Origin: Octopus vulgaris
Lineage: Eukaryota
Reading direction: 5' to 3'
DNA: 64,000 nucleotides
Assembly (NCBI GenBank): GCA_951406725.2
Contig: OX597834.1
Location: 31,806,001 to 31,870,000 of the forward strand
Below the pieces are notes generated by a model. It saw nothing but the letters and a program-made list of their open reading frames with translations. It made no database searches and was not told the DNA's origin. Numbering within the stretch: position 1 is the stretch's first letter; every line of letters starts with the position of its first letter. Shown piece after piece: positions 1,222 to 61,278 of the stretch. A program made the position numbers and the translations under genes.

Positions 1222-2802
1222 AGAAAGGCAAACACGCACGCTCGTGCACACACATATACGACGCGCTTCCACGCAGTTTCCGCCTTCTACTAAATTCTCT
1301 CACATGGCTTTGGTCGGAGCTATAGTAGATGACAAAATCGTCCAAGGTGCTATGCAGTAGGACTAAACCAGAAAGCATGTGGGTACAACTCCGTAAATCT
1401 CTGAGCGACACAGTACTCCATAACCGCACAATCATACTTGTTGCACCAATTTTGAAAAAGAAATTACTTATTTATATTTCCACCCAACCCACCAAAGAAT
1501 TTTTAAAAGAAAAAAGGATTTTATACTAATTGCCATCGAGCTTACGATAATTTTTTCCCATCATGTTGATGCGCGTACATGATAATTAAATATCATAATA
1601 ATTAATTACACTCATCAATCACGGACTGTAATCTTAACTTGGCTACGTCCATCATTAGAGCGGCTGCAGCTTAAATGATTTCGTATTTAAACCTGTGTTG
1701 TTGTCTTTGCTTTTTATCAATCACTGACGCAACATCTGGATATCTTTTTCAGAGGGGAAAATATTTAAGACTACACCGTTCCCATTTTACGGAATGTTTG
1801 CTATTGTCCGTGTTTTGTTAGAAAAACGTGACTCTTATATAACGCAGCCGCTACGTGACTGGTTGTTTGATTTGCTAGAAATAACAGCCAAATCTGCTAC
1901 CAACTACTAGGTGTAGGTATGGCTGTGTCGTAAGAAGTTTGCTTCCCAACCACATGGTCCTGGGATTGGCCCCACTGCATGACACCTTCTGCTATAACCC
2001 TGGGCTGATCAAAGTTTTGTGAGTGGATTTGGCAGGCTGAAACTAAAAGCCTGTCGCGCGCGCGTGTGTGTGCATTTGTGTTTATTTGTCCCCTTCCCAC
2101 CGTATGACAACTCGTTTGTTTACAACCCCCGTAACATTAGCAGCTCAACAAAAACCAGTCCTAGGGTCGATTTGTTCGACTAAACTCTTAAAGACGATTT
2201 CCCAGCAGGGCCGCTGTCTAATGACTGATACAAGTAAAAGAAAAAAAAAAAGAAAAGAAGACATTACATACTGAAGTCCTAAATAGACGGGATAGCCACG
2301 GCTAGAATGCCTTTAGAACACAGGTCTGCTTCTTCGCGATTGAACTAGGACAAAACAACGAATACGAAAGTCTCCGTGTATTATTCGTGCGACAATTAAG
2401 CCTTTGTATTACGTATACATTTCTATACTTGCGTCTGTGTGTGAGTGTGTGCTTTCATTTACAGCGTATAATCTACAATTGCATGTATTTACTTCAATAC
2501 AAACAACTCCCGCATGTCAGTAAACATAGGGTTCACGTTGCACAGATACATTTCAGCCTATGTCAAAGACAGTCACTGATAATAGGCAGTTCGTGGCGTC
2601 AGTAAGGGCGCCACAGACTTTAGAACTTCACATTTGAGTCTCCCTAACGGCCTCACGCACGAAATAGGGAATAGTAAAACAGTCGATAACTGACGAGGAG
2701 TTATCTTTTGGTGTTTTGTCCTCTACTTATCTTTCGTGTGCATACCTATTTTTTAATCGTTGATGATGTCCAGTACTTAATGTGTATTTTATATACATAC
2801 AT

Positions 2803-2981
2803 ACCATCGCTGATCTCGAAAAAGGAGAAATAAGCTATATAAAATCTCTAAGCGACATATACACAGTAGCAGTACGGAATCGTAACATATAATTGTCAAT
2901 TATATTCCGTATTGCTACTGTGTATATGTCGCTCAGATATTTTATATAGCTTATTTCTCCTATTTCGAAATCAGCGATGGT
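2803..2981. repeat. Long hairpin (inverted repeat, ~78-bp arms) directly upstream of the hammerhead-bearing element
   Basis: accatcgctgatctcgaaa...tacggaat versus attccgta...tttcgaaatcagcgatggt, few mismatches. Confidence 0.9.
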
Positions 2982-3048
2982 TCGTCGCTGGAAAAAGCAT
3001 ATCGTATTTTGCGAGTGGGGTGACTTTTCATCACTAGCTGGTGATTAA

Positions 3049-3093
3049 CACACGCTGAGGACGGGTAACCACCCAGAAACTCGAGTCCGTATG
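3049..3093 (+). ncRNA. Minimal type-I hammerhead ribozyme motif in a Penelope-like element end
   Basis: cacacg-CTGAGGA-c-gggt(aacc)accc-a-GAAA-ctcgag-TC-cgtatg: conserved CUGANGA and GAAA boxes, stem II gggt/accc, palindromic stem III, GUC triplet, stem I 5 of 6 bp. Confidence 0.7.
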
Positions 3094-5473
3094 TATCACG
3101 TAAGGCTAGAGATGGGAGCGATGACTTTCCCTTGCAAATACTAATCGGACACAGAATGTGTGTCGTTAGCCAGCTGGAAGAGATGTCTTCCTGGGGCTGT
3201 AAACGCCAGTAGCACCGTGCCATATAGGACGCCACACTTGGTTGGTAATTATATATATATATATATATATATTTCTTTTACTTGTTTCAGTCTTTTGACT
3301 GCAACTATGATGGAGCACCACCTTAAGGGGTATTAGTCGAACAAATCGACCCCAGGACTTATTCTTTGTAAGCCTAGTACTTACTCTGTCGGTCTCTTTT
3401 GCTGAACCACTAAGTTACGAGGGCATAAACACACCAGAATCGGTTGTCATGCGATGGCGGTGAGACAAACACACACACACACATATATATATACGACGGG
3501 CTTCTTCCAGTTTCCGTCTACTAAATCCACTCACAAGGCTTTGGTCAGCCCGAGGCTATAGTTAGAAGAATCTTGCCCATGTGCTACACAGTAGGACTGA
3601 ACCCGCAACCATGTGGTTGGGAAGCAAGCTTCTTACCACACAGCCCCGCCTGGATTATTCCAATCCAGTACGTAGATGTTGTCGTTGTTACATTGGTGTG
3701 CGGTACATATTAGAGTTGAAAACTCTGGCAATACTGTTTGCAGAGTTATATAACGAAACAAGAAGTTGGGAAAATTTTCGGTGTTATTTATTCACCACAT
3801 ACATAAAGCATCTTCAGACGTTGGGCCTCGCTGAGGAAATGACGAGGGATCGTCACCTCTGGCGATTTGCTGTATTTGAGAAAGCACAGGTGTGTGCATG
3901 TATGTAAAATCGCGGCCATCCATGCATGCAGGCATATCCTTTATGGTCATGCCCCCACTCCCAGCTGAGAGCTATTCGTCTTGCAGGTGTCAGTGCCACG
4001 TAAAAAGCACCAAGCACACTCTGTTAAGTGGTTGGCATTAGGAAAGGCATCCGACCGTAGAAACCATGCCAAAACAGATGACTGAAGCCTGGACAGCTCT
4101 CTGATTGACCAGCTCCTGTCAAACCCATGCCAGCATGGAAAACGGACGTTAAATGATGGGGATGTGTGGCGGAGGGTGAGTAGTGCATTCTCCTATCGTG
4201 AACGACAAATGGGCTGGACCGTCTTATGGTATGGATATATTGGGCAGTTGCCCACGAGCCGCACTAGTCTAGTCATCGAATTCTGAAATATATATATCTC
4301 GTGGCTTACTGTCAATGAGAAATACTATAGGACCCAGTGCGCTGATTCGCCCGGAAGCCTGTAAAGCTGCTAAAACAGCCGTGAAAATGGGAGTTTCACA
4401 CCGCACCACAAACCAACTGAGAAGGTTTGTTTTTATTCATTGACAATCGAATCATCCAAGTATCTTTATGAACTCACTTGACAATGTTGGTAAAAGTATA
4501 TCTTCGATAACTTCTGATGAAGATGCTTTCATGGAAGCAGCTAACGAATAATGAATTCTCAGATAAGATTAGATACGTACAAAACACTGGGAAGACAGAA
4601 CGTTCGAACTGGAATAGGAAAAGAAACATTTTATGGCACAACCCAATACTTAACCTAGAAGTAAAAAATTAAAATAGCAAGGTGTGAACTTTGAGAGAAT
4701 AATTGAGAATTTTTGTCCAAGCCAGTAATGGTTTACACAAAAGAACGGAACTGTTTGCACCTTATATGCACGGAGCTAAATATCTTTTATGTAAATACCA
4801 GCCTTCTTGAATTTCGTCTTGCTTTGGGCTTCGATTATATTTAAATAATGTATGTATACGTGTGTATCTACCTTATTTGAAGGCGCAAAAAAAACAAAAA
4901 AAAACTTTTTAAAGAATTTAATGTATTAAAGCATATAATATTTGAGGCAACTTGGTATGTGGGACATGAGGTAATTTTTTTGAAGATACTTTTTCTTTTT
5001 AAAAATGTGCATCTTATATGCCATCAAATAGTATTTGTATGTATGTAGATAAATTAAGAAATGGAGTTAAACGCAAGTGTTATTCGAATCTTTATACTTC
5101 CGACATATGTTTCGAAGAAAATGATTACCGCGTATATGAAGGGAACGCTGTCAAGTTATTTTTTGAAAAACCGTTAATAGATTTAACGTCAAAAGTAATT
5201 TAGAAAAAGAGAAGTGGGAGAAAGAAAAAAAGGTAACAGAAAATTAAGAGTGGAGAAATATAGTGCGATAGAAGAGTGGAAATAAAGCTTTAAGGCGTGT
5301 ATTGTATCGTATGTATATGCGTGTGTGTGTATGTGCGTGTAAATGGATGTATGCATATATTTCATATAATAATTTTTTTCTTTACGAATTTTCATTATTT
5401 TTTTTATTGATTCTGTCTTCTGCATGGAATTCTGTCTTTCGCAATGGAATTAATACGATTATCCATTAAAATT

Positions 5474-36200: not shown

Positions 36201-37806
36201 ATTAACTGGGTGCTGGAGACTCCCCCCCCCACCTCCCACCCATTGCTGATGTTCAAATGATAAACTTTTACTAATATCTCAGTGACTTAATCACGCCAGA
36301 ATAGTTTTTGTGTAAGAGGATGGCGAGCCTTGGTGGTGGTGGTGGTGATGGTGATGGTGGGGGCATATATTATCTTTCCTCATTTCCTCCATACTGAGTT
36401 GGTCTCTTTTTATTATTATTATTATTATTTTTTTAAAAATTTTGGGGGGGGAGGTAGTGATGGTGGTGGTGGTGGTGATTACTTTGGGGGTTATAATGAG
36501 ATTTATGTACTTTTATCTAATTAGACATATATATCATTTATTTCAAATGTTGCATGTCTGTCAGATTGACCAGCGGGTGGGGTGGGGGGTGGAGAATCTG
36601 TTTTTGGGTCAGGGCTGGAGTGTGTGTGTGTGTGGGGGGGGTGAATTGATGGGGAGGCCAAAGATAGTGTGCCGATTGTGTTGTTTATTTTTACCCATTC
36701 CACCCCTTGCCCCTTTTTTCTTTCTCCATCAAAAACTGGGGATGCATCAATGTTACTTAATAAAGAAAGCATTGTTATTATTTGCCTTTTATGTTCTGAG
36801 TTCAAGTTCTGCCAAGGTCAGCTTTGCCTTTCATCCTTTCAAGGTCAATAAAATAAGTACCAATTATACACTGGGGGTGGGGGTGTAATCAATTTACTCC
36901 CTCCCCAAAATTTCAGACTTTGTGCCTCTAATAGAAAGGATTATTATTATTATTGAGTGAGAGACCAGTGCATGCCATCAGAGTGACACTGGGGTACAAT
37001 TATACGAAGCCCAATATACCCTTAATGACTACCCGTCTGTTAAGTACAAACCAGGCACATGCATCACAACCATATGTGCACGACATGATGATGTCATATC
37101 TAGATATAAACAGCGCATGACCTTGCAGAAATGCCCATGTTTCCAGTGGTGAATTATCCAAACCCCAAAGAATTCCTTTCAACACATGGCTGTGATGCTC
37201 CCCTACTACTTCTGCTCATGATCAGAGATGCACATATCATCAACCACTAAGGGACATGGTCAACTGGTTGAGGTCAAACAACTGACGAGCTAATCTGTGG
37301 TATTGAGCAGAATATTTGCTCTAGCCCATCTTTTATACCAAGACAAAACAATTTATATGATGACACTTCCAATCAGTTAAGATCAGGAGCCATGAGAACC
37401 ACAGCCTGGTACTGCTACAGGGCATTTATTATTATTATTATTATTTGCACAGAGGTTGTACCATGGCCAATGAGGTAAATCCGAGGCATGGTTATTGCTA
37501 GTTGAAATTATTATTATTATTAGTAGTAGTAGTAGTAAGCTGTCAGAATCATTGGCACACTGGACGATATGCTTAGCGGCACTTTGTCTGTCTGTATGTT
37601 CTGAGTTTAAATTCCGCTGAGGCCAACTTTGTCCTTCATCCTTTCAAGTTTGATAAATTAAGTACCAGTTGAACACTGGGGTCAAAGTGATCAAATTGCC
37701 TCCTCCTCCGAAATTGCTGGCCTTGTGCCAAAATTTGACACCATTATTATTATTATTATTATTATTATTAATACCTCAAGAGAAGTAGATGGGGCAGAAT
37801 CTTTAA

Positions 37807-41561: not shown

Positions 41562-41798
41562 ATGCAGTCACCGATGGCTTTCGCCAACTACACGGATTTG
41601 ACTGTGAACTCGGCCGGGTTGGTGGTAACCCCGCTGGGCCACATACCGGTCCCCTATTTCCTCCAAGTGGTTACCGTCATTCTCATTTTCGCTGTTTCCC
41701 TCTCCTCTGGATTTTCGCTATGGATGATGTTCGACCTTTGGAGTATGTTCATCTACGGACTGATCCAGCTATTTTTCCCGTTTGTTTTTATCCCGCAG
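41562..41798 (+). CDS. Alternative (paralogous) first coding exon B of the same membrane-protein locus
   Basis: ATGs at 41562 and 41574 in frame; 79 codons ending ...GFSLWMMFDLWSMFIYGLIQLFFPFVFIPQ; consensus donor CAG|GTGAGT in phase 0; shares W-x-x-F-D-x7-G...FI-x1,2-Q with exon A; no polypyrimidine tract upstream. Confidence 0.72.
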
Positions 41799-49800: not shown

Positions 49801-51845
49801 GCCCATCTGTGGCGGGTATTGTTGCTTCTACCTTTAGAATCATTAATATTAAGACTACACCTTAATTCAAAAACAAGAACCTCTTTGAAAGCTCTTCAAG
49901 TCAAGGTCTTGAACAGTCTTCAACAGATCTGTGATCCTGCTGGTTATTTATTTATTTGTTAGGTACAATCTATCTAGGACTACATTGTCTAGTGTCTGTG
50001 CTTTAACCTGCCCAAGACTGCCCCTAATTCCTGTTTGTGATCAAAATTCACATTTCCCATTGAAATTTCATATTTCATTTCCAAACATCTGTTTAATGAG
50101 GTCAAAGCTATTTTTACTACAGTCTTCATTATTTTCCAACTTAATTGACATCAAGAGAATATATTTCAACAAGAATATGCTTACGAAAGGGTTAACGAAG
50201 AAAAGAGAGAAAGCAAAGACTGTCTGTGTAATTTTAGGAAGATTTAACTTCTATTTCTAGCAGTTTGAATGATTGCAAAGTGGTTTCCTCGGTGCCCCTG
50301 GGCTTTCCAGAACGTCATGTTTTGGGTGGTGGTAGTGTGAGAGATAATAAATGTATCAATGAGTGAAGGGGAGGAGGAGGGGCGGTGAAAGATCATGTGA
50401 CAGGAAGGGGAGACAGTAAAAGAGGAAGTTGGTACGAAACTGTGGTATGGGGGAGGGTGGTGGTAGTGTGGCCGTTCTGTGACCCTTTTCTTGCTTGCTT
50501 TTCTCTGCATCACCGCCACTGCTGCCTTCCCCCTCTTCTGACCCAATAGTGGATGACAGCCTAGAGTGGGACTATATAGATGTGTGTGTGTGGTGGTGGT
50601 TTGGGTAGTGTTTTCCCTAAATCACAGTTGAAGATGGGGAGGTGTGTGTTGGTTTCTATCCCCTACTTCCTACCATCACTCAGTGGAGCTAGGTCCCAAG
50701 CATTACTGCAACTGGCTTTATACATTGAATAAAAATATATAAACTTGCAATGAGAGAGAGAAAGAGAGAAAATATTTGTAAAGAATAAAAAATGAAAGGA
50801 AAAGATAGACATTGGTGATTATATGTAAATTGAAACATTTCTCATGGCACCAGCAGACAAAATGGGAAAGGCATTGCCTGGAGGGGCTGGGGGATAACAA
50901 GGGAGATGTTCCACAGGGTTCACATTTGAGGACAGCAATCTCTGTCCGAATAGGGTTGGGCAGGGATGTAATCAGGGAAGAGAGGTGTAGCAAGACTACC
51001 AGAGATATCAACTGTCCTCAAAATGTCTTTAGCCCTGAAGACCACACAAAGAGATAATTATTATTATTATTATTATTATTTTCTTCTCAGAACTCTTGGT
51101 CTTGCTTGCTCTGGTTAATTCTGTTGGAGCAGACAACAACCTGTTGTCAGAAGTCTCTCAGGGTCTCTTTCTGCCAGCTATAAGACTTCGTACTTGAATA
51201 TTAATTATCATGGAAGATGCTCAACACCCAAGCACCAACTTCAAAATCCTAGCTGTCCCCATCATCATCATCATCATCATTTAGCGTCCGTTTTCCATGC
51301 TAGCATGGGTTGGACGGTTCAACTGGTGTCTGTGAAGCCAGAAGGCTGCATCAGGCCCAGTCTGATCTGGTAGTGTTTCTACGGCTGGATGCCCTTCCTA
51401 ACGCCAACCACTCCACAAGTGTAGTGGGTGCTTTTTACGTGCCACCCGCACAGGTGCCAGACGGAGCTGGCAAACGGCCACGAACGGATGGTGCTTTTAC
51501 ATGCCACCAGCATGGAGGCCAGTAGAACAATTTTGGGGACCTGCTCTGCCCTCATATCAATTTCAGGCCTTGTGTCTATAGCAGGAAGGATTAACTATTA
51601 TTGTTATTATTATTATTATAGTTATTATTAAGGCAGCAAGCTGGCGGAATTGTTAGCACGCTGAACAAAATGCTTAGCAGCGTTTTGTCTGTCTTTCTGA
51701 GTTCAAATTCCACTGAGGTCACCTTTGCGTTTCATCCTTTTGGGGGGTTGATAGATTAAGTACCAGTTACACACTGGAGTCAATGTAATCAACTGGTCCC
51801 TACCCCTCAAATTTCAGGCCTTGCATCTATAGCAGGAAGGATTAC

Positions 51846-51882
<37 letters not shown>

Positions 51883-54800
51883 GTTATTATTAAGGCAGCA
51901 AGCTGGCGGAATTGTTAGCACACTGGACAAAATGCTTCGTGGTATTTCCTCTGTTGTTACGTTCTGAGTTCAAATTCCCCTGGGGTTGATTTTACCTTTC
52001 ATCCTTTCAGGGTCAATAAATTAAGTACCAGTCAAGTGCTGGGGCTCGATGTAATCGACTATCCCCCCTTCCACAGGTTTCAGGCCTTGTACCTTTAGTA
52101 GAAAGGATTATCATTATTATTATTATGTTCTCCAGTTCTTGAAAATTGGCTTATAAACACCCTCACCTTCCATGCTGTAATTGTTTTTGTTTCAGCACAT
52201 GATCTCAGATCAGGTCACTTGCTATGCAAGTACATCTCTGTGAAAATAATAAAAATGTTGAACTGTTTTGGCCATGCTGGGGCACTAGTCAAATATTTCG
52301 CTAAATCTCTTTGTAGCTTAGTCTCCCTCTGGTTCCTTGCTCATAATGGTGTGTGTTTCTAGGCTCTGGCACTTCACTTCTAAGACAAAAAAAGGAGTCT
52401 GTTTTGCTCCACCAAATTTAATGCTGTCCACAGAATACTTCAGCAGGGTGTGGTGTACATGTGTGAGCTTTAATTTCTTTATGTTTCCTTTAAAAGTACA
52501 CATGTTTGTGTAAGTGAAACACACAAACATAAAATGTACACATGTGTGTATGCGTGTGTGCATAGGTATTTCTGTGTATGTTTGTGTATATATATGTACG
52601 AATGTGTTTGTGTGTGTGTGTGTGTGTGAGAGCACAGTTATCTTAATCATGTGAGGGGGAAACTTCACTTGTGTTGAAGGGTTGAGCAAGTGGTGGGGTA
52701 TATCTGCTGCCCTTCAGCTAATTTTCTTCTTGTCTCTAGCCAGCTCCCCCTTTCTCTCCCTCCCCCCCTCTCTCTCTCTCTTCCTTTCCTCTATGTATCA
52801 GCTTCCACAGATTACAAAGCTGATGGTGGTGGTGGTGGTGGTGGTGGTAGCAGTGATGGATTTAGTGTGAGAAATACAAAAAAATTCCCTTTCTTTTAGT
52901 AGGGAATTTTGGGTGCTGGCATATTTCAACTGTGAAACTATTATATATTATTTTTATTATTATTATCATTAGTAGTAGTAGTAACATGAAATGTAGTAAA
53001 AATACCTTAGGATGATGTAAGAAATTATTATTATTATTGGTGGTGGTGGTGGTGGTGGTAACTAGGGCAAAATAGGGACCTGTAATGTATGTGACCCATT
53101 TAGGGAGAGAAAGAAAGAGCTGTTTATCACTGTCCCCTCCCCCACATCTACCAACTGTCCTCCTTAATTTAGGGCCCTAGCTGGGGTAGGTTTTGGGTGT
53201 TTGGTGGTAGTGGTGGTGGTGGTGGTGGTAGGGTGTGGTTCTTGAAGTCATCCTACATCATTGGCTCTTCTTATCTATCATCTGACTTTGTTTGTTGGTT
53301 TGTTGTTATATAAAATATCTCTTGTAAACATAATCATCATCATCATAACAACAACTATCATCACCATCCCCACCATCGGCAACATCATCATTATCATTAT
53401 CATGTTACGCCTATTGTTAAGATTCTCATTCAAAGATGCAGAGCTCTGTGTCCGTTAATAATACATAGACACACACATATATGTGTGCATATGCACATAC
53501 ACTTGTGTGTGTGTGTGAGTACTTTGTTTTGGGGTCTGGTTTGCAAGATTCTTTATGTGAATTTGTGTGTTGAAACAAATTTTATTGTGTCTAAGGAGAG
53601 TCATCATGTTAATATAATTAACACACACTCGTTTAATTCCACTCGTTTATTAAATATCTGATTGTTCTATTACATATTTAAAGAAAGAATTTTTTTTTAA
53701 ATGTTATTAACTATTTTTAAAATATTTAGAGAACAGAATGTCACAAACATTTGTGGAAGAAATTGTCTTAAAATACTCCTCAACATGAAAACATCTTCCC
53801 CAATGGATGGTTACAATTTGTTGTCTCAATAATTTTGTTGAGTTAATAACCTTTTAAAAGACAATATTTTTTTAACTGTCATCTAACAAAACCCTTTGAA
53901 ATATACATGGTGACTGAAACCTGGTGCATCTCTCTGGTTTGCCAACCCCCGTCAAACTGTGCTTTCCCGTACTCTGAGTTGCTCAATCCCGATGATTGAT
54001 GATCAGAACTGAGTGAATCTAAGCCTGGGAAATCAGAGCCTTTCAGTTACAGTGTATTAAAGAATACACTTGTAATCATTTCTGGTGACTCAGCAGATAT
54101 GTGTGTTTCAACTGATTTCCCTATGAAGGGATCATCATCGTTTAATGGTTGCACCAGGCTCCAATCTGATCTGGCAGAGTTTCTACAGCTGGATGCCCTT
54201 CCTAATGCCAACCACTCCAAGAGTGTAGTTGGTGCTTTTACATGCCACCGGCATGAGGGCCAGTCAGGTAGTACTGGCAACGTCCACGCTCAAATGGTGT
54301 TTTTTATGTGCCACTTGCACAGGAGTCAGTCCAGCGAAAAAAGCTTGCAGTTTAATGTGATGGAATCTTTATTATTCTTTATTAATTTTGTGAAATGTTT
54401 TCATGAAATTTCTCCAAATATTTCTAAACAAAAGCAGTAATGACACAAGGAAATTTTAGAAATTCATTTGATCAGAGTTAATAAGTTATCAATGATTCCA
54501 TGAAGGAGGTCAGTGATATTATAAGAAACTTGCTAATTCTTGGGGTTTTTTTCATTGTAAGAGCATAAATCCTTCCAGTTGAGGTGTGATGGTCATAAAG
54601 TAAGCAGTAGATTTTCCTGTCATAAACCCCATAGATTGAATTTTGCCACAGTTTCTTGCTGAGCAACATGCACAGACGAATTGTTTATAGTGATGAAATG
54701 CTTGTACATTAGCTCACTCTTAGCTGAAGAGGTTCACATTGTGCCACTTGTCAGAGGTTGAACTGATTGCAGAGCCAAGTGAGACAAAGTGATTTCTTCA

Positions 54801-55010: not shown

Positions 55011-55154
55011 GTTGAAGTTCGTGTTGATGGCGTTCATCTGTTCATGGTTCGAGCATTTGGTATAATGCTGCTTGGTTCAGCCTATCTTTGGTGGAACGTA
55101 CGCAATTCCAAAGACATCACCGTACACACGACCCTGATGTGGGCCAGGGTGATG
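55011..55154 (+). CDS. Internal coding exon C (shared), transmembrane segment
   Basis: Long pyrimidine tract ending tttacag|; 144 nt, VEVRVDGVHLFMVRAFGIMLLGSAYLWWNVRNSKDITVHTTLMWARVM; donor ATG|GTAAGT; phase 0-0, in frame with exons A and B. Confidence 0.9.
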
Positions 55155-56164
55155 GTAAGTTACTCTATTTTATTTACTATTTATTTTTTCTTATCTATGT
55201 AGGTATCAAGAAATGTTTCAGAAGTTCGCTTCACAACCAAATGGTTTCCAGTTCAGTCCTACTGTGCAGCACTGTACACTCTTGTAACATTACCCCAGGC
55301 TGTCCATTGCCTTGTGAGTGAATTTGGTGGATGGAAACTGTACTGAGGCCCTTCAGCATTGCTTAACATCCGCCTTCTATTCTTAACCACACACTGCCAC
55401 GCCTGTGGTTAGAAGTATGTACAGTGTAATATGATCCGTGTGAGATTGAATGAATGTCTTCTGTTTCATGTGTTGTATAATAAATGTTTGGATTTATTGG
55501 AGAGGAGGCTGAGCTGAATTGGATTGGAAGCAAGGGGGGGCAGCTGTGTTGTTTAACTCTTTTGAAATCACCAACCTACTTGAGAACAGATGCAGGGTGC
55601 ATAAACAGAAAAATGATAACAAACGGTTAATAGGGAGTAAATGAAGTTTATTTATTCTTTTTTTTTTTCCAACAGTCAAACAAGGGTGAATACCCATGAA
55701 TTTTGGCTTACAGGCCACACCCAAGACTGGTAAAATTATCTGCAGATAACAAAATGTAAGAACCAATTCGGTTACGATGACAAGGGTTCCAGCTGATTCA
55801 GATAATGGAACAGCTTGCTTGTGAAATTAACATGCAAGTGGTTGAGTATTCCACAGACACACATACCCTTAACGTTGTTCTCAGGGAGATTCATTGTGAC
55901 ACAGAATGTGACAAACCTGGCCCATTGGCAATACAGGTACACCTCATTTTTGCCAGGTGAGTGGACTGGAGCAAATGAGAAATAAGGTGTCTTGCTCAAG
56001 GACGTACTGTGCCACCAGGAATCGAACTTATGACCTTACAAGTGTAAGCTGAATACCTTAACCACTGTACTAAGTACTTTCACCGAGGGTGTCCATACAC
56101 AAACACACACTCACATGTGTATATCACAGACTCACATGTGTATATACTACTACTACTAATAATA

Positions 56165-56383
56165 ATAATAATAATAAAATATAATAGTTTTACAGTTGAA
56201 ATATGCCAGCACCCAAAATTCCCTACCAAAAGAAAGGGAATTTTTTTGTATTTCTCACACTAAATCCATCACTGCTACCACCACCACCACCATCAGCTTT
56301 GTAATCTGTGGAAGCTGATACATAGAGGAAAGGAAGAGAGGGAAAGAAAGGGGGGAGCTGGCTAGAGACAAGAAGAAAATTAG
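56165..56383 (-). repeat. Inverted local duplicate of about 52719-52960
   Basis: cagttgaaatatgccagcacccaaaattccc...gagacaagaagaaaattag is the reverse complement of 52719-52935. Confidence 0.9.
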
Positions 56384-56614
56384 TAGTGTTTATGATTGTT
56401 ATAAACTGGAAGCATTGATGTAGTTGTTGTCTACTTTATCATCATCATCATCGTTTTAATGTCCATTTTCCCATGCTTGCATGGGTGAAATGGAATTTGT
56501 TGAGGCAGATTTTTTTATGGCCAGATGACCTCATTGTCACCAACCCATACCAGTTTCCGAGCAAGGTAAATGTTTCCCCATGACATCAATTTGCAGCGTC
56601 CCTCCACCTAGTGT

Positions 56615-56662
56615 CTGTGACTGAAGAGGAAGTAATCACTCTGAAATGCTTGTATCTCACAG
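56615..56662 (+). ncRNA. Type-I hammerhead ribozyme motif, first copy in a tandem retrozyme-like repeat
   Basis: ctgtga-CTGAAGA-ggaagt(aatc)actct-GAAA-tgcttgta-TC-tcacag: perfect 6-bp stem I, stem II with one bulge, short stem III, AUC triplet. Confidence 0.7.
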
Positions 56663-56676
56663 TCTGGATAGGTGGT

Positions 56677-57068
56677 AACAATCTGTTTAATGAGGTCAAA
56701 GCTATTTTACTTACAGTCTTCATTATTTTCAAACTTAATTGACATCAAGAGAATATATTTCAACAAGAATAGGGTTACAAAAGAGTTAACGAAGAAAAGA
56801 GAGAAAGCAAAGACTGTCTGTGTAATTTTAGGAAGATTTAACTTCTATTTCTAGCAGTTTGAATGATTGCACAGTGGTTTCCTCGTTGCCCCTGGGCTTT
56901 CTACAACGTTTTGGGTGGTGGTAGTGTGAGAGATAATAAATGTATCAATGAGTGAAGGGGAGGAGGAGGGGCAGTGAAAGACCATGTGACAGGAAGGGGA
57001 GACAGTAAAAGAGGAAGTTGGTATGAAACTGTGGCATGGGGGAGGATGGTGGTAAATTATTGCAGTGT
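56677..57068 (+). repeat. Direct local duplicate of about 50085-50463
   Basis: atctgtttaatgaggtcaaagcta...ggtggta present at both loci with high identity. Confidence 0.9.
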
Positions 57069-57330
57069 GCTGCAAACTGATCTAGGTGTATTTACACCAT
57101 TTGTCTACATCGAGAAATTTTCTCTATGACAAAGCACAGTGAATGTCTCGCTTATAAATTCATACGTGCCACTGGCATATTCAAACGGGTAATAACATTG
57201 CATTTATGCACTTCACTGCTTGGCACTCTCACCTCATAATTTATTTATGGTCAGCCAACATACAATGCCTGGAATAACATAGGAGACATTGTCTCTCTTA
57301 TCAGGTCGCAGCACCACCACCTGGTTTCTT

Positions 57331-57373
57331 TGACTGAAGAGGAGACAACTACCCCAAAATGTTTGCATATTAG
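57331..57373 (+). ncRNA. Degenerate second hammerhead copy of the same tandem repeat
   Basis: tga-CTGAAGA-ggagacaactacccc-AAAA-tgtttgca-TA-tta; GAAA box mutated; same flank (gtctggataggtgg) as the 56615 copy. Confidence 0.5.
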
Positions 57374-60300
57374 TCTGGATAGGTGGCGCTTCAAGCTGAT
57401 TTAGGTATGTTTACACCATACCAAGAAATTTTCTCCACAACATGAGATACTTAATGGCTTGTTTACAAATTCAAACATGCCACAAGCATACTTGAACTGG
57501 TGACAAATTTGTATTTGTACTCATCACTGCTTGGCTCTCCCCTTCCATAACAGGCTTCTTTTGGTTTCCATCAATCAAATTCACTCACAAGGCTTTGGTC
57601 ATGCTTTCCCAAGGTGCCACACAGTGGGACTGAACCCAAAACCATGTGGGTGGAACACAAACTCCTTACCTATTTCTTTACTACACACAAGGGGCTAAAC
57701 ACAGAGAGGACAGACAAACGGATTAAGTCGATTACATCGACCCCAGTACGTAACTGGTCCTTAATTTATCGACCCCGAAAGGATGAAAGGCAAAGTCGAC
57801 CTTGGCGGAATTCGAACTCACAACGTAACGCAGACGAAATACTGCTAAGCATTTCGCCCGGCGTGCTAACGTTTCTGCCAGCTAACGTTTTTACCATGTA
57901 GCCACACCTGCACCTGCTCGATATCTCCTAGGAAAGCAAGAAGATGAAATGAGGGTCTTGAATAGTTTTGTAAGAGAGTAAAACTGCAGTAAAGGTAAGA
58001 ATCTGGAGTGGCAAATTGATTGGAGCAAAATGGGGACAAATATATCGGGGTCCCATTACAGGTTTTTCTTTGCTTTAGAAATTAACTGGTTGTTGAGTAG
58101 GTGTGTAATTTGGAATTGATTATGGTATGTATAATGAATGTGTATGCATGTGTGTGTTTGGGAGTATATATGTATATGGTGTTTTTGTGTGTGAGTATAG
58201 TACATACATATATGCATGTATGGCATGTGGTGGGGACGTGTGTATGTGTTTATATATATATGTGTGTGTGTATGTAATGTGTGGTGGGGGAGTATATATG
58301 CATATACGGTGTTGTGTGTTGTATAACAGTCAATAGTTGTCTATCCAGTTTATGTAACAACTTGCTTGTTGTTTTACACATAAATGTTGCAGAAGGGGGT
58401 AGTGGGGATGGTGTGGTGCTGAGGCGGGGCAGGGTAGAGGGAACAATAACAGGCCAGTATTGGAGTATCTTACAGTGTGATTTCTCTAATTAGTCATCGA
58501 ACGGTCCTATTCCGCTGCCCCTTCTATCACCACCACTGTTACTACTACTACTACTGCACCTTACCAAATACTACCACCCCTGCTACTAACTATTACTAAC
58601 TACCATTACTACTTCTAAAACTATTACTGCAAATCTATCATTATGTTAGTGCAGTCTTTTGTAACATATACATGCATTTGTATTTGGGTGTGTATGGACA
58701 TGAATTCATATATGCACATGTACATACATTTACATATGGATGTGTGTATGTCATCATCATCCGTTTTCCATGCTAGCATGGGTTGGACGGTTCGACCAGG
58801 GTCTGCACCAGGCTCCAGTCTGATCTGGCAGTGTTTCTACAGCTGGATGCCCTTCCTAACGCCAACCACTCCGCGAATGTAGTGAGTGCTTTTTACGTGC
58901 CACCGGCACAGGTGCCAGGGGAGGCTGGCATCGGCCACGATCGGTTGGTGCTTTTAACGTGCCACTGGCACGGAAGCCAGTCAAGGCGGCGCTGGCGTGT
59001 GTAAATATAAATATGTATGTATATGTATGTATATAATTCTTATTATTAAGGTGGTAAGAAGGTAGCAAGCTGGCAGAATTGTTGGCACACTGGACAAAAT
59101 GCTTAGTGGTATTTCATCCATCGCTCTGTTCTGAGCGTACGTATGTATGTATGTATGTATGTATATGTATTATAGTAGGTGGGGAATTCCTGAATCTATA
59201 TAAAAGCCGTCTGTTTTCTCGATGCCACAGTATGACAACAATGGTTTTACATTAAAGAATGGCTTTATCTTTCCTAGCACACTGACTTGGTTCAAGTTTT
59301 GTATCACTGCTGGAACTGAAGTGTGCGGTGATGGCAGTTGTGGCATGGGAAAAGGTTGTGGTGTTTACAGTACTGGAGGGGGGTTGTGCTGGTGGGTATT
59401 ACAATAGCATTGTTGATGTTGGTGTGTGATGGTTTGGGTTGTGTAATATTTGTGTTCTGCTAGTAATGGTGGTTATAATGAAGTTGATGGTGGTGGTGAT
59501 GGTGATAACAATGAAGATCAGGATTGTTGTAGTGGTTGTCATGGCAGCAGTAGAAGCAGGGTTGGGAAGGGGGGACAGTGGTGGTTTCAGTAACAATGCG
59601 GTGGGTGGGCTGTAGAAACATGTCGCTGTTTAGCCCCAGGTCAACCCTGAATGAGCAGACTTACAATCAAAAGAATTCCAGCCATGACCTTCCTAGTTTG
59701 CCAAATCCATTCACAAGGTTTTCGTTTGCTCAGGGTTATAGAAGTCACTTGCTGAAGGTGCTGCACAGAGGGACTGAACCCAAAGCCATGTGGTTGGGAA
59801 GCAACTTCTGCTTTCATAGACATACATTGTCTCATCACTGTGTCCATATATATATATACACATGTGCGTACACGTATACACACTCACATGTCCCTCCCCA
59901 CATATGTATATCATTATTTAATGTGTTTGGCATGGATGGGTTGGACAGTTTGACGAGATCCATCAAGCTACAGTGTTGTGTTGAGCTCCAATGTCAGCTT
60001 TGGCACGGTTTCTATGGCTGGGTGCCATTCCTGATGCCAACCACTTCACAGAGTGTGGACTGAGTGCTTTCTTTCTTGCTAATGGCACAGGTGAGTGTTT
60101 GCCAGGTAACTTGCAAGGCAAGAAAGTACAGTAGAAAGAAAAAGGACCAAAGCCCCTTCATCTAAGCAGGAGGGAAGGGATTGAGGGAGAAGGAGGATGT
60201 GATTATATGCCTGGTGTTGAGGGGCTAAAATATCCGAGGACAGCCCAGGTACCTTGCTATTGAGTAAGCTACATGGCTACCTCACATGTGGTAGACATGT

Positions 60301-60632
60301 AGCTTATAGTGGTGGGTGGGATAAGCTGGAAAGGATATAGAAATGGTGGTGATGAGATGCCAGACCATCTCAAGATACAAGGGGATATGAGGGGAGAGTA
60401 GCAGACCTTTTCGGTTTTTTTTTCTGTTATTTGTTCCAGTCATTAAAGGGTGGCCATGCTGGGGCACCAAAACAAATTGACTCCAGTACTTACCTCTTTA
60501 ACCTTGCTACTTAATTCTATCAGTCTCCTTGCCAAACTGCTAAGTGACAGGATACACACCAGTACCAGTTGTCAAGCAGTGATGAGAGACAAACAGACAC
60601 ACACACACACGTGTGTGTGTGTGTATATATAT

Positions 60633-61040
60633 ATCATCATCATCATCATTTAACGTCCGTTTTCCATGCTAGCATGGGTTGGAAGGTTCAACTGGGGTCT
60701 GGGAAGCCAGAAGGCTGCGCCAAGCCCAGTCTGATCTGGCAGTGTTTCTACAGCTGGATGCCCTTCCTAACGCCAACCACTCCGAGAGTGTAGTGGGTGC
60801 TTTTTATATGCCACCTGCACAGGTACCAGAGGAGGCTGGCAAAACGACCATGATCGGGTGGTGCTTTTTACATGTCACCGGCACGGGGACCAGACGAGGC
60901 TGGCAACGGCCACAATCAGATGGTGCTTTTTACGTGCCACCGGCACGGAGGCCAGTCAGGGCGGCGCTGACAACGGCCACGTTTGGATGGTTCTCTTACG
61001 TGCCACTGGCACTGGTACCACAGCCACAATTTCCATTGAT
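60633..61040 (-). mobile_element. Family 4 short retroposon with (GAT)n tail and internal subrepeats (others at about 30111, 47835, 51260, 54132, 58750)
   Basis: (atc)n-tttaacgtccgttttccatgctagcatggg...ctggatgcccttcctaacgccaacc; resembles RTE-type 3' ends. Confidence 0.75.
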
Positions 61041-61051
61041 GTTGAACGATT

Positions 61052-61095
<44 letters not shown>

Positions 61096-61209
61096 CTTGC
61101 CGCTTTGTGGCCATGAAATATTGAACAGGGAACATGTCTACCATTGCTCTCTGAATAAAACCTATGTCAATTAAATTCTCCCTTTTTTTTATTTTTCCGT
61201 TTTCTTTAG

Positions 61210-61278
61210 GGTGGAGCAGCTGCTTTACTTGCTCAAGGTTTTGCTCAGTTCAACAAAGCCAGTCGTATGACCCAAGAG
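61210..61278 (+). CDS. Internal coding exon D (shared)
   Basis: Strong pyrimidine tract ending ttctttag|; 69 nt, GGAAALLAQGFAQFNKASRMTQE; donor GAG|GTAAGT; phase 0-0, continues the hydrophobic helix begun at the end of exon C. Confidence 0.85.

Follow-up and report, generated by a model that had tools for sequence, protein, structure and literature searches.

The 64,000-nucleotide (nt) stretch of Octopus vulgaris DNA analysed here (assembly GCA_951406725.2, contig OX597834.1, positions 31,806,001 to 31,870,000; hereafter the window) carries, within an intron, an insertion built from units that each hold a hammerhead ribozyme. The insertion belongs to a dispersed, protein-free repeat family that was likely copied by a Penelope-type reverse transcriptase (RT)/endonuclease, while the window copy itself is aged, split and predicted to be inert; we put the probability of this reading at about 0.8. 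Mobilisation by such an enzyme is likely because the two 3′ ends of the family and its inverted pairs, joining one end of each kind, match the published footprint of the Penelope ‘tail’. This end pattern is the most informative feature of the family and is absent from the initial annotation of the locus, which had recognised an old copy of a retrozyme-type family. That recognition holds: the family is dispersed and multi-copy, and each of its units, a few hundred nt long, carries one type I hammerhead. The element is a decayed member of the class of animal retrozymes that lack long terminal repeats (non-LTR retrozymes), and its family bears a clear Penelope-type footprint.

The genome (2.8 Gb in 227 contigs) was searched with the two parts of the element. 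The hammerhead block returned 291 candidates, and all 40 that were scored were significant; the body returned 888, of which 40 were scored and gave 83 matches on many contigs. An exact pattern of the core plus stem II matched 123 times and a second exact pattern 163 times, against zero for the reversed control in either case, so that the family must number at least several hundred copies. The genome-wide search and consensus proposed in the initial annotation thus recovered a dispersed family whose majority sequence keeps the hammerhead core and its pairing. The majority unit is about 342 nt long, with a GC content of 0.41-0.44 and a longest reading frame of 62 codons, and it agrees with the definition of a non-LTR retrozyme unit (150-450 nt, a GC content below 45%, no open reading frame (ORF) and a single canonical type I hammerhead). 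Units described in animals measure 350-390 bp in mussel and 330/350 bp in axolotl (Cervera and de la Pena 2020, PMC7229834). The majority folds into a canonical metazoan type I hammerhead, with a 6-bp helix I that continues past an internal loop into an outer helix, a 4-bp helix II with a 7-nt loop, and a short helix III whose loop is CUUG or the palindromic CAUG; these are the canonical animal motifs described by Cervera and de la Pena (PMC4209133).

Pairing was assessed on 79 of 85 hammerhead blocks (six were left out). Paired letters fill 84.7% of the cells, against 30-50% in controls in which the strands were slid, and cells changed on both sides of a pair number 49 against 28.6 in shuffled alignments (reached in 0/500); they lie mostly in helix I, where five of the six stem I pairs have changed on both sides. 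Closed into a circle, the majority unit folds better than its shuffles (40 each) with a z-score of −3.5, as do three of four natural monomers (−2.2, −3.2 and −3.9); the unit body alone gives −2.3, and the isolated hammerhead does not discriminate (−1.6 to +1.0). Copies are 69-93% identical to the majority, with a mean of 83%, and the family is old. Copies sharing a locus are 87.6% alike (34 pairs) against 81.4% for copies at different loci, as expected from one template. No description of hammerhead families in octopus was found in the literature, a search that left aside Repbase-type libraries, where the family may be catalogued. The words ‘octopus’, ‘cephalopod’ and ‘squid’ do not occur in the main text of Cervera 2020 (PMC7229834), whose supplements may list cephalopods, and the giant squid genome paper reports 235 Rfam Hammerhead_1 matches (PMC6962438).

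The ends of the copies were mapped in 139 segments at 80 loci, the window locus among them. These remained from 92 loci after 12 were dropped: 11 represented a place, or a single duplication, already counted, and one (L056 in our numbering of loci), a distinct locus with an inverted pair, was removed in error. With unit positions numbered from the cut site, 38 of the 139 segments end 3′ at positions 151-160 and 26 at 191-200, two peaks about 40 nt apart, and the 5′ ends are scattered. Head-to-head inverted pairs occur at 29 of the 80 loci, a tail-to-tail pair at one. Once a complex inverted array (L048) is set aside, 28 inverted pairs remain, and of the 18 that can be classed, 17 combine a short end with a long one (p = 5e-5 against an expected 49%). 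The cut site is crossed by 89 segments; four begin at it. Of the 139 segments, 27 exceed one unit, the longest reaching 538 nt, with unit running into unit and no ORF between. True dimers also appear among the exact-pattern matches as same-strand hammerheads 330-348 nt apart. The tandem monomers of the initial annotation are borne out to that extent, but long tandem arrays are absent from the 80 loci, where most copies lie dispersed as single monomers, as partial dimers or as inverted pairs joined head to head. Beside the family copy at L048, positions 590-1808 hold an array in which short pieces of the unit body alternate in inverted orientation.

Craig et al. 2021 (PMC8557442) name as hallmarks of Penelope-like elements partial tandems, a 5′-truncated copy in inverted orientation and, at one end, a tail of 30-40 bp. 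According to Frangieh et al. 2024 (PMC11167929), a Penelope-type enzyme starts at two internal RNA sites that bound a 30-40-nt tail and extends both target strands, unprocessed RNA being the main substrate in vitro. The octopus family shows the corresponding pattern, namely two 3′ ends about 40 nt apart, the tail on one arm of inverted pairs and a variable 5′ truncation, as judged with end windows set post hoc. Autonomous Penelope-like elements are present in the genome as many GIY-YIG loci, including intact 781-codon frames. One octopus Penelope-like wave has been dated at a Jukes-Cantor distance of 0.2, in a paper whose main text does not mention ribozymes (PMC13282606), and the mean identity of 83% to the majority would fit that wave. 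A young Penelope-like family (L127-L129, contigs C16 and C17) carries intact 781-codon RT plus GIY-YIG frames in many copies; a scan for the core revealed no clear canonical hammerhead next to these. In another Penelope-like lineage, the GIY-YIG end is followed downstream by a type I hammerhead of the minimal kind (L133:5200-5270, forward strand, the same place as L100).

Several observations weigh against this reading, and others stand below with the alternatives that they favour. Pairs that show double changes are no more numerous than in shuffles (15 against 12.1; 53/500), and slid controls reach as many double-changed cells (54 and 56). Of the aligned rows, 30 of 79 come from loci chosen by the core pattern. 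One of the four natural monomers folds no better than its shuffles (z = +0.3), and in only 9 of 62 cases is a copy closest to its partner at the same locus. The windows for the short and long ends were set after viewing the histogram, and the read-through counts are inflated by the choice of most loci for their likeness to the hammerhead. Finally, a GIY-YIG search with 6136 candidates, 150 of them scored, supplied 30 loci and eight longer regions for comparison with the unit, and none shows likeness to it in DNA or protein; an old partner may be missed here, since this small sample consists largely of a single young family.

The sequence of events that best accommodates these patterns can be sketched as follows. 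By analogy with the class, source copies would have been transcribed as multimers, self-cleaved and probably circularised. The end patterns suggest that a Penelope-type enzyme then began complementary DNA (cDNA) at either of two fixed positions inside the unit, about 155 and about 195 nt past the cut site, and that this cDNA, made on one or both target strands, extended back across the ribozyme and into the unit before it; the products would be 5′-truncated monomers, partial dimers and head-to-head pairs whose arms are one short, one long. A bolder version holds that the family is a fossil record of a Penelope-type enzyme copying a closed hammerhead RNA circle from two fixed starts, one per target strand, through the ribozyme junction. 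We regard this version as tentative, at slightly less than even odds; a circle and an uncleaved multimer are both compatible with the data, which cannot tell the two templates apart. If true, it would constitute direct structural evidence for a proposed, unproven route by which animal retrozymes spread.

At the locus itself, the following features were delimited:

50087..50465, forward strand: local source of the later insert, 6.6 kb upstream on the same strand
56586..57545, forward strand: the complete insertion, some 1.6-1.8 units of the hammerhead family with the 342-nt unit, covering unit positions 297-19 and, beyond the later insert, those from 21 on to 182 in the unit that follows
56603..56675, forward strand: outer extension of stem I past the internal loop, a feature of the family
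56615..56662, forward strand: hammerhead 1, type I, every core letter present, predicted cut after C56656
56677..57068, forward strand: later insert between unit positions 19 and 21, splitting the dimer
57069..57327, forward strand: body of unit 1, 89% identical to the family majority across unit positions 21-150, with about 18 nt deleted
57328..57373, forward strand: hammerhead 2, CUGAAGA kept at 57334-57340, G12 changed to A, a mismatch in stem II and stem I broken
57388..57545, forward strand: body of unit 2, 78% identical to the majority, ending about 180-195 nt past the cut site and hence containing the 40-nt ‘tail’

The insertion is 5′-truncated just upstream of hammerhead 1, starting about 30 nt before it, and stops near the long 3′ end of the family. 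For hammerhead 1 the initial annotation was accurate in its coordinates, core and 6-bp stem I: positions 56615-56620 pair with 56657-56662, and the core consists of CUGAAGA (56621-56627), GAAA (56643-56646) and AUC ending at 56656. Stem II (56628-56642) has a basal G.U and an A-C mismatch or bulge, and stem III is short (A-U, U-A, G.U, with a CUUG loop); the outer extension of stem I likely provides the loop 1 partner of loop 2. The degenerate second hammerhead, first placed at 57331-57373, is real and spans 57328-57373: it keeps CUGAAGA, but AAAA replaces GAAA, stem II has a C-C mismatch and the 3′ strand of stem I is short by 2 nt. By the core definition of a type I hammerhead (CUGANGA, GAAA, UH and three helices, open at helix I), the family and hammerhead 1 qualify and hammerhead 2 does not, having lost G12 to A; its sequence predicts it to be inactive.

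The two cores lie 713 nt apart, or 321 nt without the 392-nt insert, the spacing first proposed; the accompanying unit length of about 320 nt is right for the window copy and wrong for the family (about 342 nt), from which the window copy differs by being some 18-20 nt shorter. Compared with each other, the two hammerhead blocks (56601-56675 and 57314-57386) are 76% alike and the bodies (57069-57228 and 57388-57539) 71%, in agreement with the repeated bodies already noticed. The hammerhead block of the window copy, at 91% identity to the majority, is its best-kept part. Neither hammerhead of the element matched Rfam, at the gathering score or at E values up to 10, and Tandem Repeats Finder made no call on 56590-57545. 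No target duplication is visible around the insertion, both ends of which adjoin common short repeats, and the window holds no inverted arm of this copy.

Most of the insert (56681-57054) is a 94% copy of window positions 50087-50465, followed by 14 nt absent from that source, and GGTGGT stands at the left junction as well as where the copied piece ends. The source is the only full-length second copy among the 40 scored of 387 candidates. Insert and source differ at 17 of 374 positions, the two unit bodies at 19 of 92 (p = 4e-6), so that the insert is younger than the divergence of the bodies; we infer a locally templated insertion, made in a repair event. A second local duplication lies 200 nt upstream of the element (56145-56383 against 52718-52980, inverted, 87% alike), and together the two suggest repeated locally templated repair in the host gene. 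The bodies of the window copy are just 79% alike, under the between-locus mean, which raises the question as to whether two adjacent insertions are present. A pair of independent neighbouring insertions, or a local duplication, would explain why the bodies diverge beyond usual same-locus pairs (79% against 87.6%) and differ in age signal (89% and 78% to the majority), and would suit a place with further local duplications. We nevertheless consider it unlikely: unit coordinates run on over both junctions, from 19 to 21 across the insert and in a single 504-nt alignment through hammerhead 2, and the insert is far younger than the divergence of the bodies. A single insertion of 1.6-1.8 units, placed in the intron in sense orientation with its end near the long site, then decayed and split by the younger, locally templated 392-nt insert, is thus the preferred history of the locus.

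At the level of the family, the copies might instead be solo or truncated pseudo-LTRs (pLTRs) of an extinct autonomous Penelope-like element, rather than a free ORF-less unit. Autonomous elements leave the same end pattern, many decayed GIY-YIG loci exist in the genome, and Li et al. (bioRxiv 10.64898/2026.07.22.740005) report transposon matches, to pLTRs in almost every case, for 24 of 57 retrozyme families in frogs. This origin is nonetheless quite improbable, given the segments that exceed one unit (27 of 139) and pass from unit to unit without an intervening ORF, the spacing of 330-348 nt between same-strand hammerheads, and a hammerhead with the canonical 6-bp helix I and 4-bp helix II rather than the minimal pLTR type (PMC4209133). 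The 80-92 loci also lack an adjoining RT plus GIY-YIG ORF, the sole RT-like match lying about 1 kb away on the opposite strand. Comparison of their flanks returned only the element’s own inverted arms and common short repeats. One pair of hammerheads 4 kb apart (L091) was considered as the pseudo-LTRs of an autonomous element and rejected, being a duplication with a LINE-type ORF between the copies.

A free, dispersed hammerhead unit therefore remains the preferred description of the family, and its ribozymes show no special preservation. Among 17 copies picked mainly by their body, core letters are mutated in 8.2% of cases and non-CpG body letters in 11.3% (p = 0.25); the core is intact in 4 of the 17, and G12 is changed in 7, as in hammerhead 2. 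At loci picked by hammerhead likeness the core is changed in 4.8% against 13.5%, a conservation that reflects selection bias since the loci were chosen by that very likeness. Judged by these sequences, family cores appear to decay like the rest of the unit, with no sign of selection. Folding predictions place the active fold of hammerhead 1 at 8.6 kcal/mol above the minimum, against 1.0-5.8 in seven copies with intact stems, and give its true-register stem I a probability of 0.06; the penalty is 8.1-9.7 kcal/mol in the ensemble and in short prefixes, which offer no rescue, and the minimum-energy fold differs from a hammerhead. Hammerhead 1 is accordingly predicted by these models to misfold. 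Release of a monomer or circle needs two cuts, and is unlikely here because hammerhead 2 has lost G12, hammerhead 1 is predicted to misfold and the insert splits the dimer; the self-cleaving, circularising monomer of the initial annotation is therefore improbable at this locus, and the window copy probably no longer makes circles. The rule by which Li et al. call a locus ‘active’, two consecutive complete hammerheads, fails here owing to the mutated second core and the 392-nt insert, a verdict that concerns this copy and not the family.

The element lies in sense orientation in a forward-strand gene, as first annotated, with the following parts:

41587-41798, forward strand: further host exon, inferred only
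55011..55154, forward strand: upstream host exon, encoding a hydrophobic peptide
55155..61209, forward strand: host intron of 6055 nt, GT..AG, holding the element in sense orientation, its joint present in contigs of three of four runs
61210..61278, forward strand: downstream host exon, joined in contigs

The host gene probably encodes a membrane protein. Its two exons matched neither Pfam nor the atlas, and a likeness to TP53I11 is not supported, PF14936 matching on contig C7 and not at the host gene. A spliced message exists and the element is sense-intronic, since assembled contigs join 55154 to 61210 in three of four sequencing runs, at a depth of 43-243 (the runs were used as assembled contigs and their RNA status was guessed). 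Contig depth is low across 57070-57503 and carries no weight for or against expression. The intron being spliced in these runs, the earlier proposal that self-cleavage cuts the pre-mRNA between exons is unsupported, and the predicted misfolding and the neutral decay of the cores likewise make it doubtful. Splicing is reported to proceed despite slow intronic hammerheads and to be aborted by fast ribozymes (PMC2995048, which summarises Dye 2006 and Fong 2009), and a spliced mRNA is hence compatible with some cutting; hammerhead 1 could also still cut because energy models ignore tertiary contacts and Mg2+. The idea that the host pre-mRNA is even now cleaved by hammerhead 1, with an effect on splicing or on the amount of mRNA, in the way an intronic ribozyme modulates Cpeb3 mRNA (PMC10919898), would draw on its complete core letters in sense orientation 4553 nt before the acceptor and on its well-kept block (91%), and is very improbable given the predicted misfold with weakened stems II and III, a core-mutated only neighbour for a dimeric fold, family cores without selection, the spliced joint, and the report that slow intronic hammerheads do not block splicing (PMC2995048). 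With hammerhead 2 predicted to be unable to cut, and hammerhead 1 to cut slowly if at all, no circle would be released and the intron would be spliced; the window copy probably no longer disturbs its host gene.

Conserved amniote intronic hammerheads are reportedly further functional intronic ribozymes. The window copy resembles the CPEB3 ribozyme (PMC10919898) in lying in sense in an intron of an expressed gene, and differs from functional intronic ribozymes in its multi-copy mobile origin, its lack of any sign of selection and its predicted misfolding. In common with animal non-LTR retrozymes, the octopus family has one canonical type I hammerhead per low-GC, ORF-less unit of 300-400 nt, occurs as monomers and dimers, is predicted to pair with itself in the majority unit and three of four natural monomers, and coexists with autonomous Penelope-like elements; unlike them, it lacks long arrays among the 80 loci and is old and decaying. 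Its inverted two-arm pattern with two 3′ ends goes undescribed in the parts of the retrozyme accounts drawn upon here (PMC7229834; Li et al., which covers vertebrates, three insects and a coral only). With endonuclease-bearing Penelope-like elements (Penelope/Poseidon, Neptune), as these are described, the family shares 5′ truncation, partial tandems, the inverted 5′ copy, the 30-40-nt tail at one end, two internal RT starts downstream of the hammerhead and copies that read through the cut site. In contrast to them, it has no RT or GIY-YIG ORF, its hammerhead is canonical rather than minimal, and no sequence link ties it to the sampled autonomous families.

The window also contains a second type I hammerhead family, unrelated in sequence to the 342-nt one, at 3021-3108 on the forward strand within an element at about 2800-3270. 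Its unit is about 355 nt by direct-repeat spacing, a search gave 2049 candidates, and copies are 86-91% identical to that in the window; it shares its tandem and inverted architecture, and also its loop 2 motif, with the 342-nt family, and is younger and more abundant. Elsewhere, positions 37441-37568 (forward strand) hold a U4 snRNA-like copy that exceeds the Rfam gathering score with a degraded 3′ part, probably a pseudogene, and positions 611-1221 hold a tandem run of seven 87-nt units that are almost identical (98% alike).

Taken by itself, the locus is probably an inert fossil, and the family is of modest importance. It extends retrozymes to the octopus genome, and its two-ended, two-armed insertions, which match the behaviour of a Penelope-type enzyme in vitro, lend support to the idea that such enzymes mobilise retrozymes. 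The younger hammerhead families of the same genome are better material for testing Penelope-type mobilisation.

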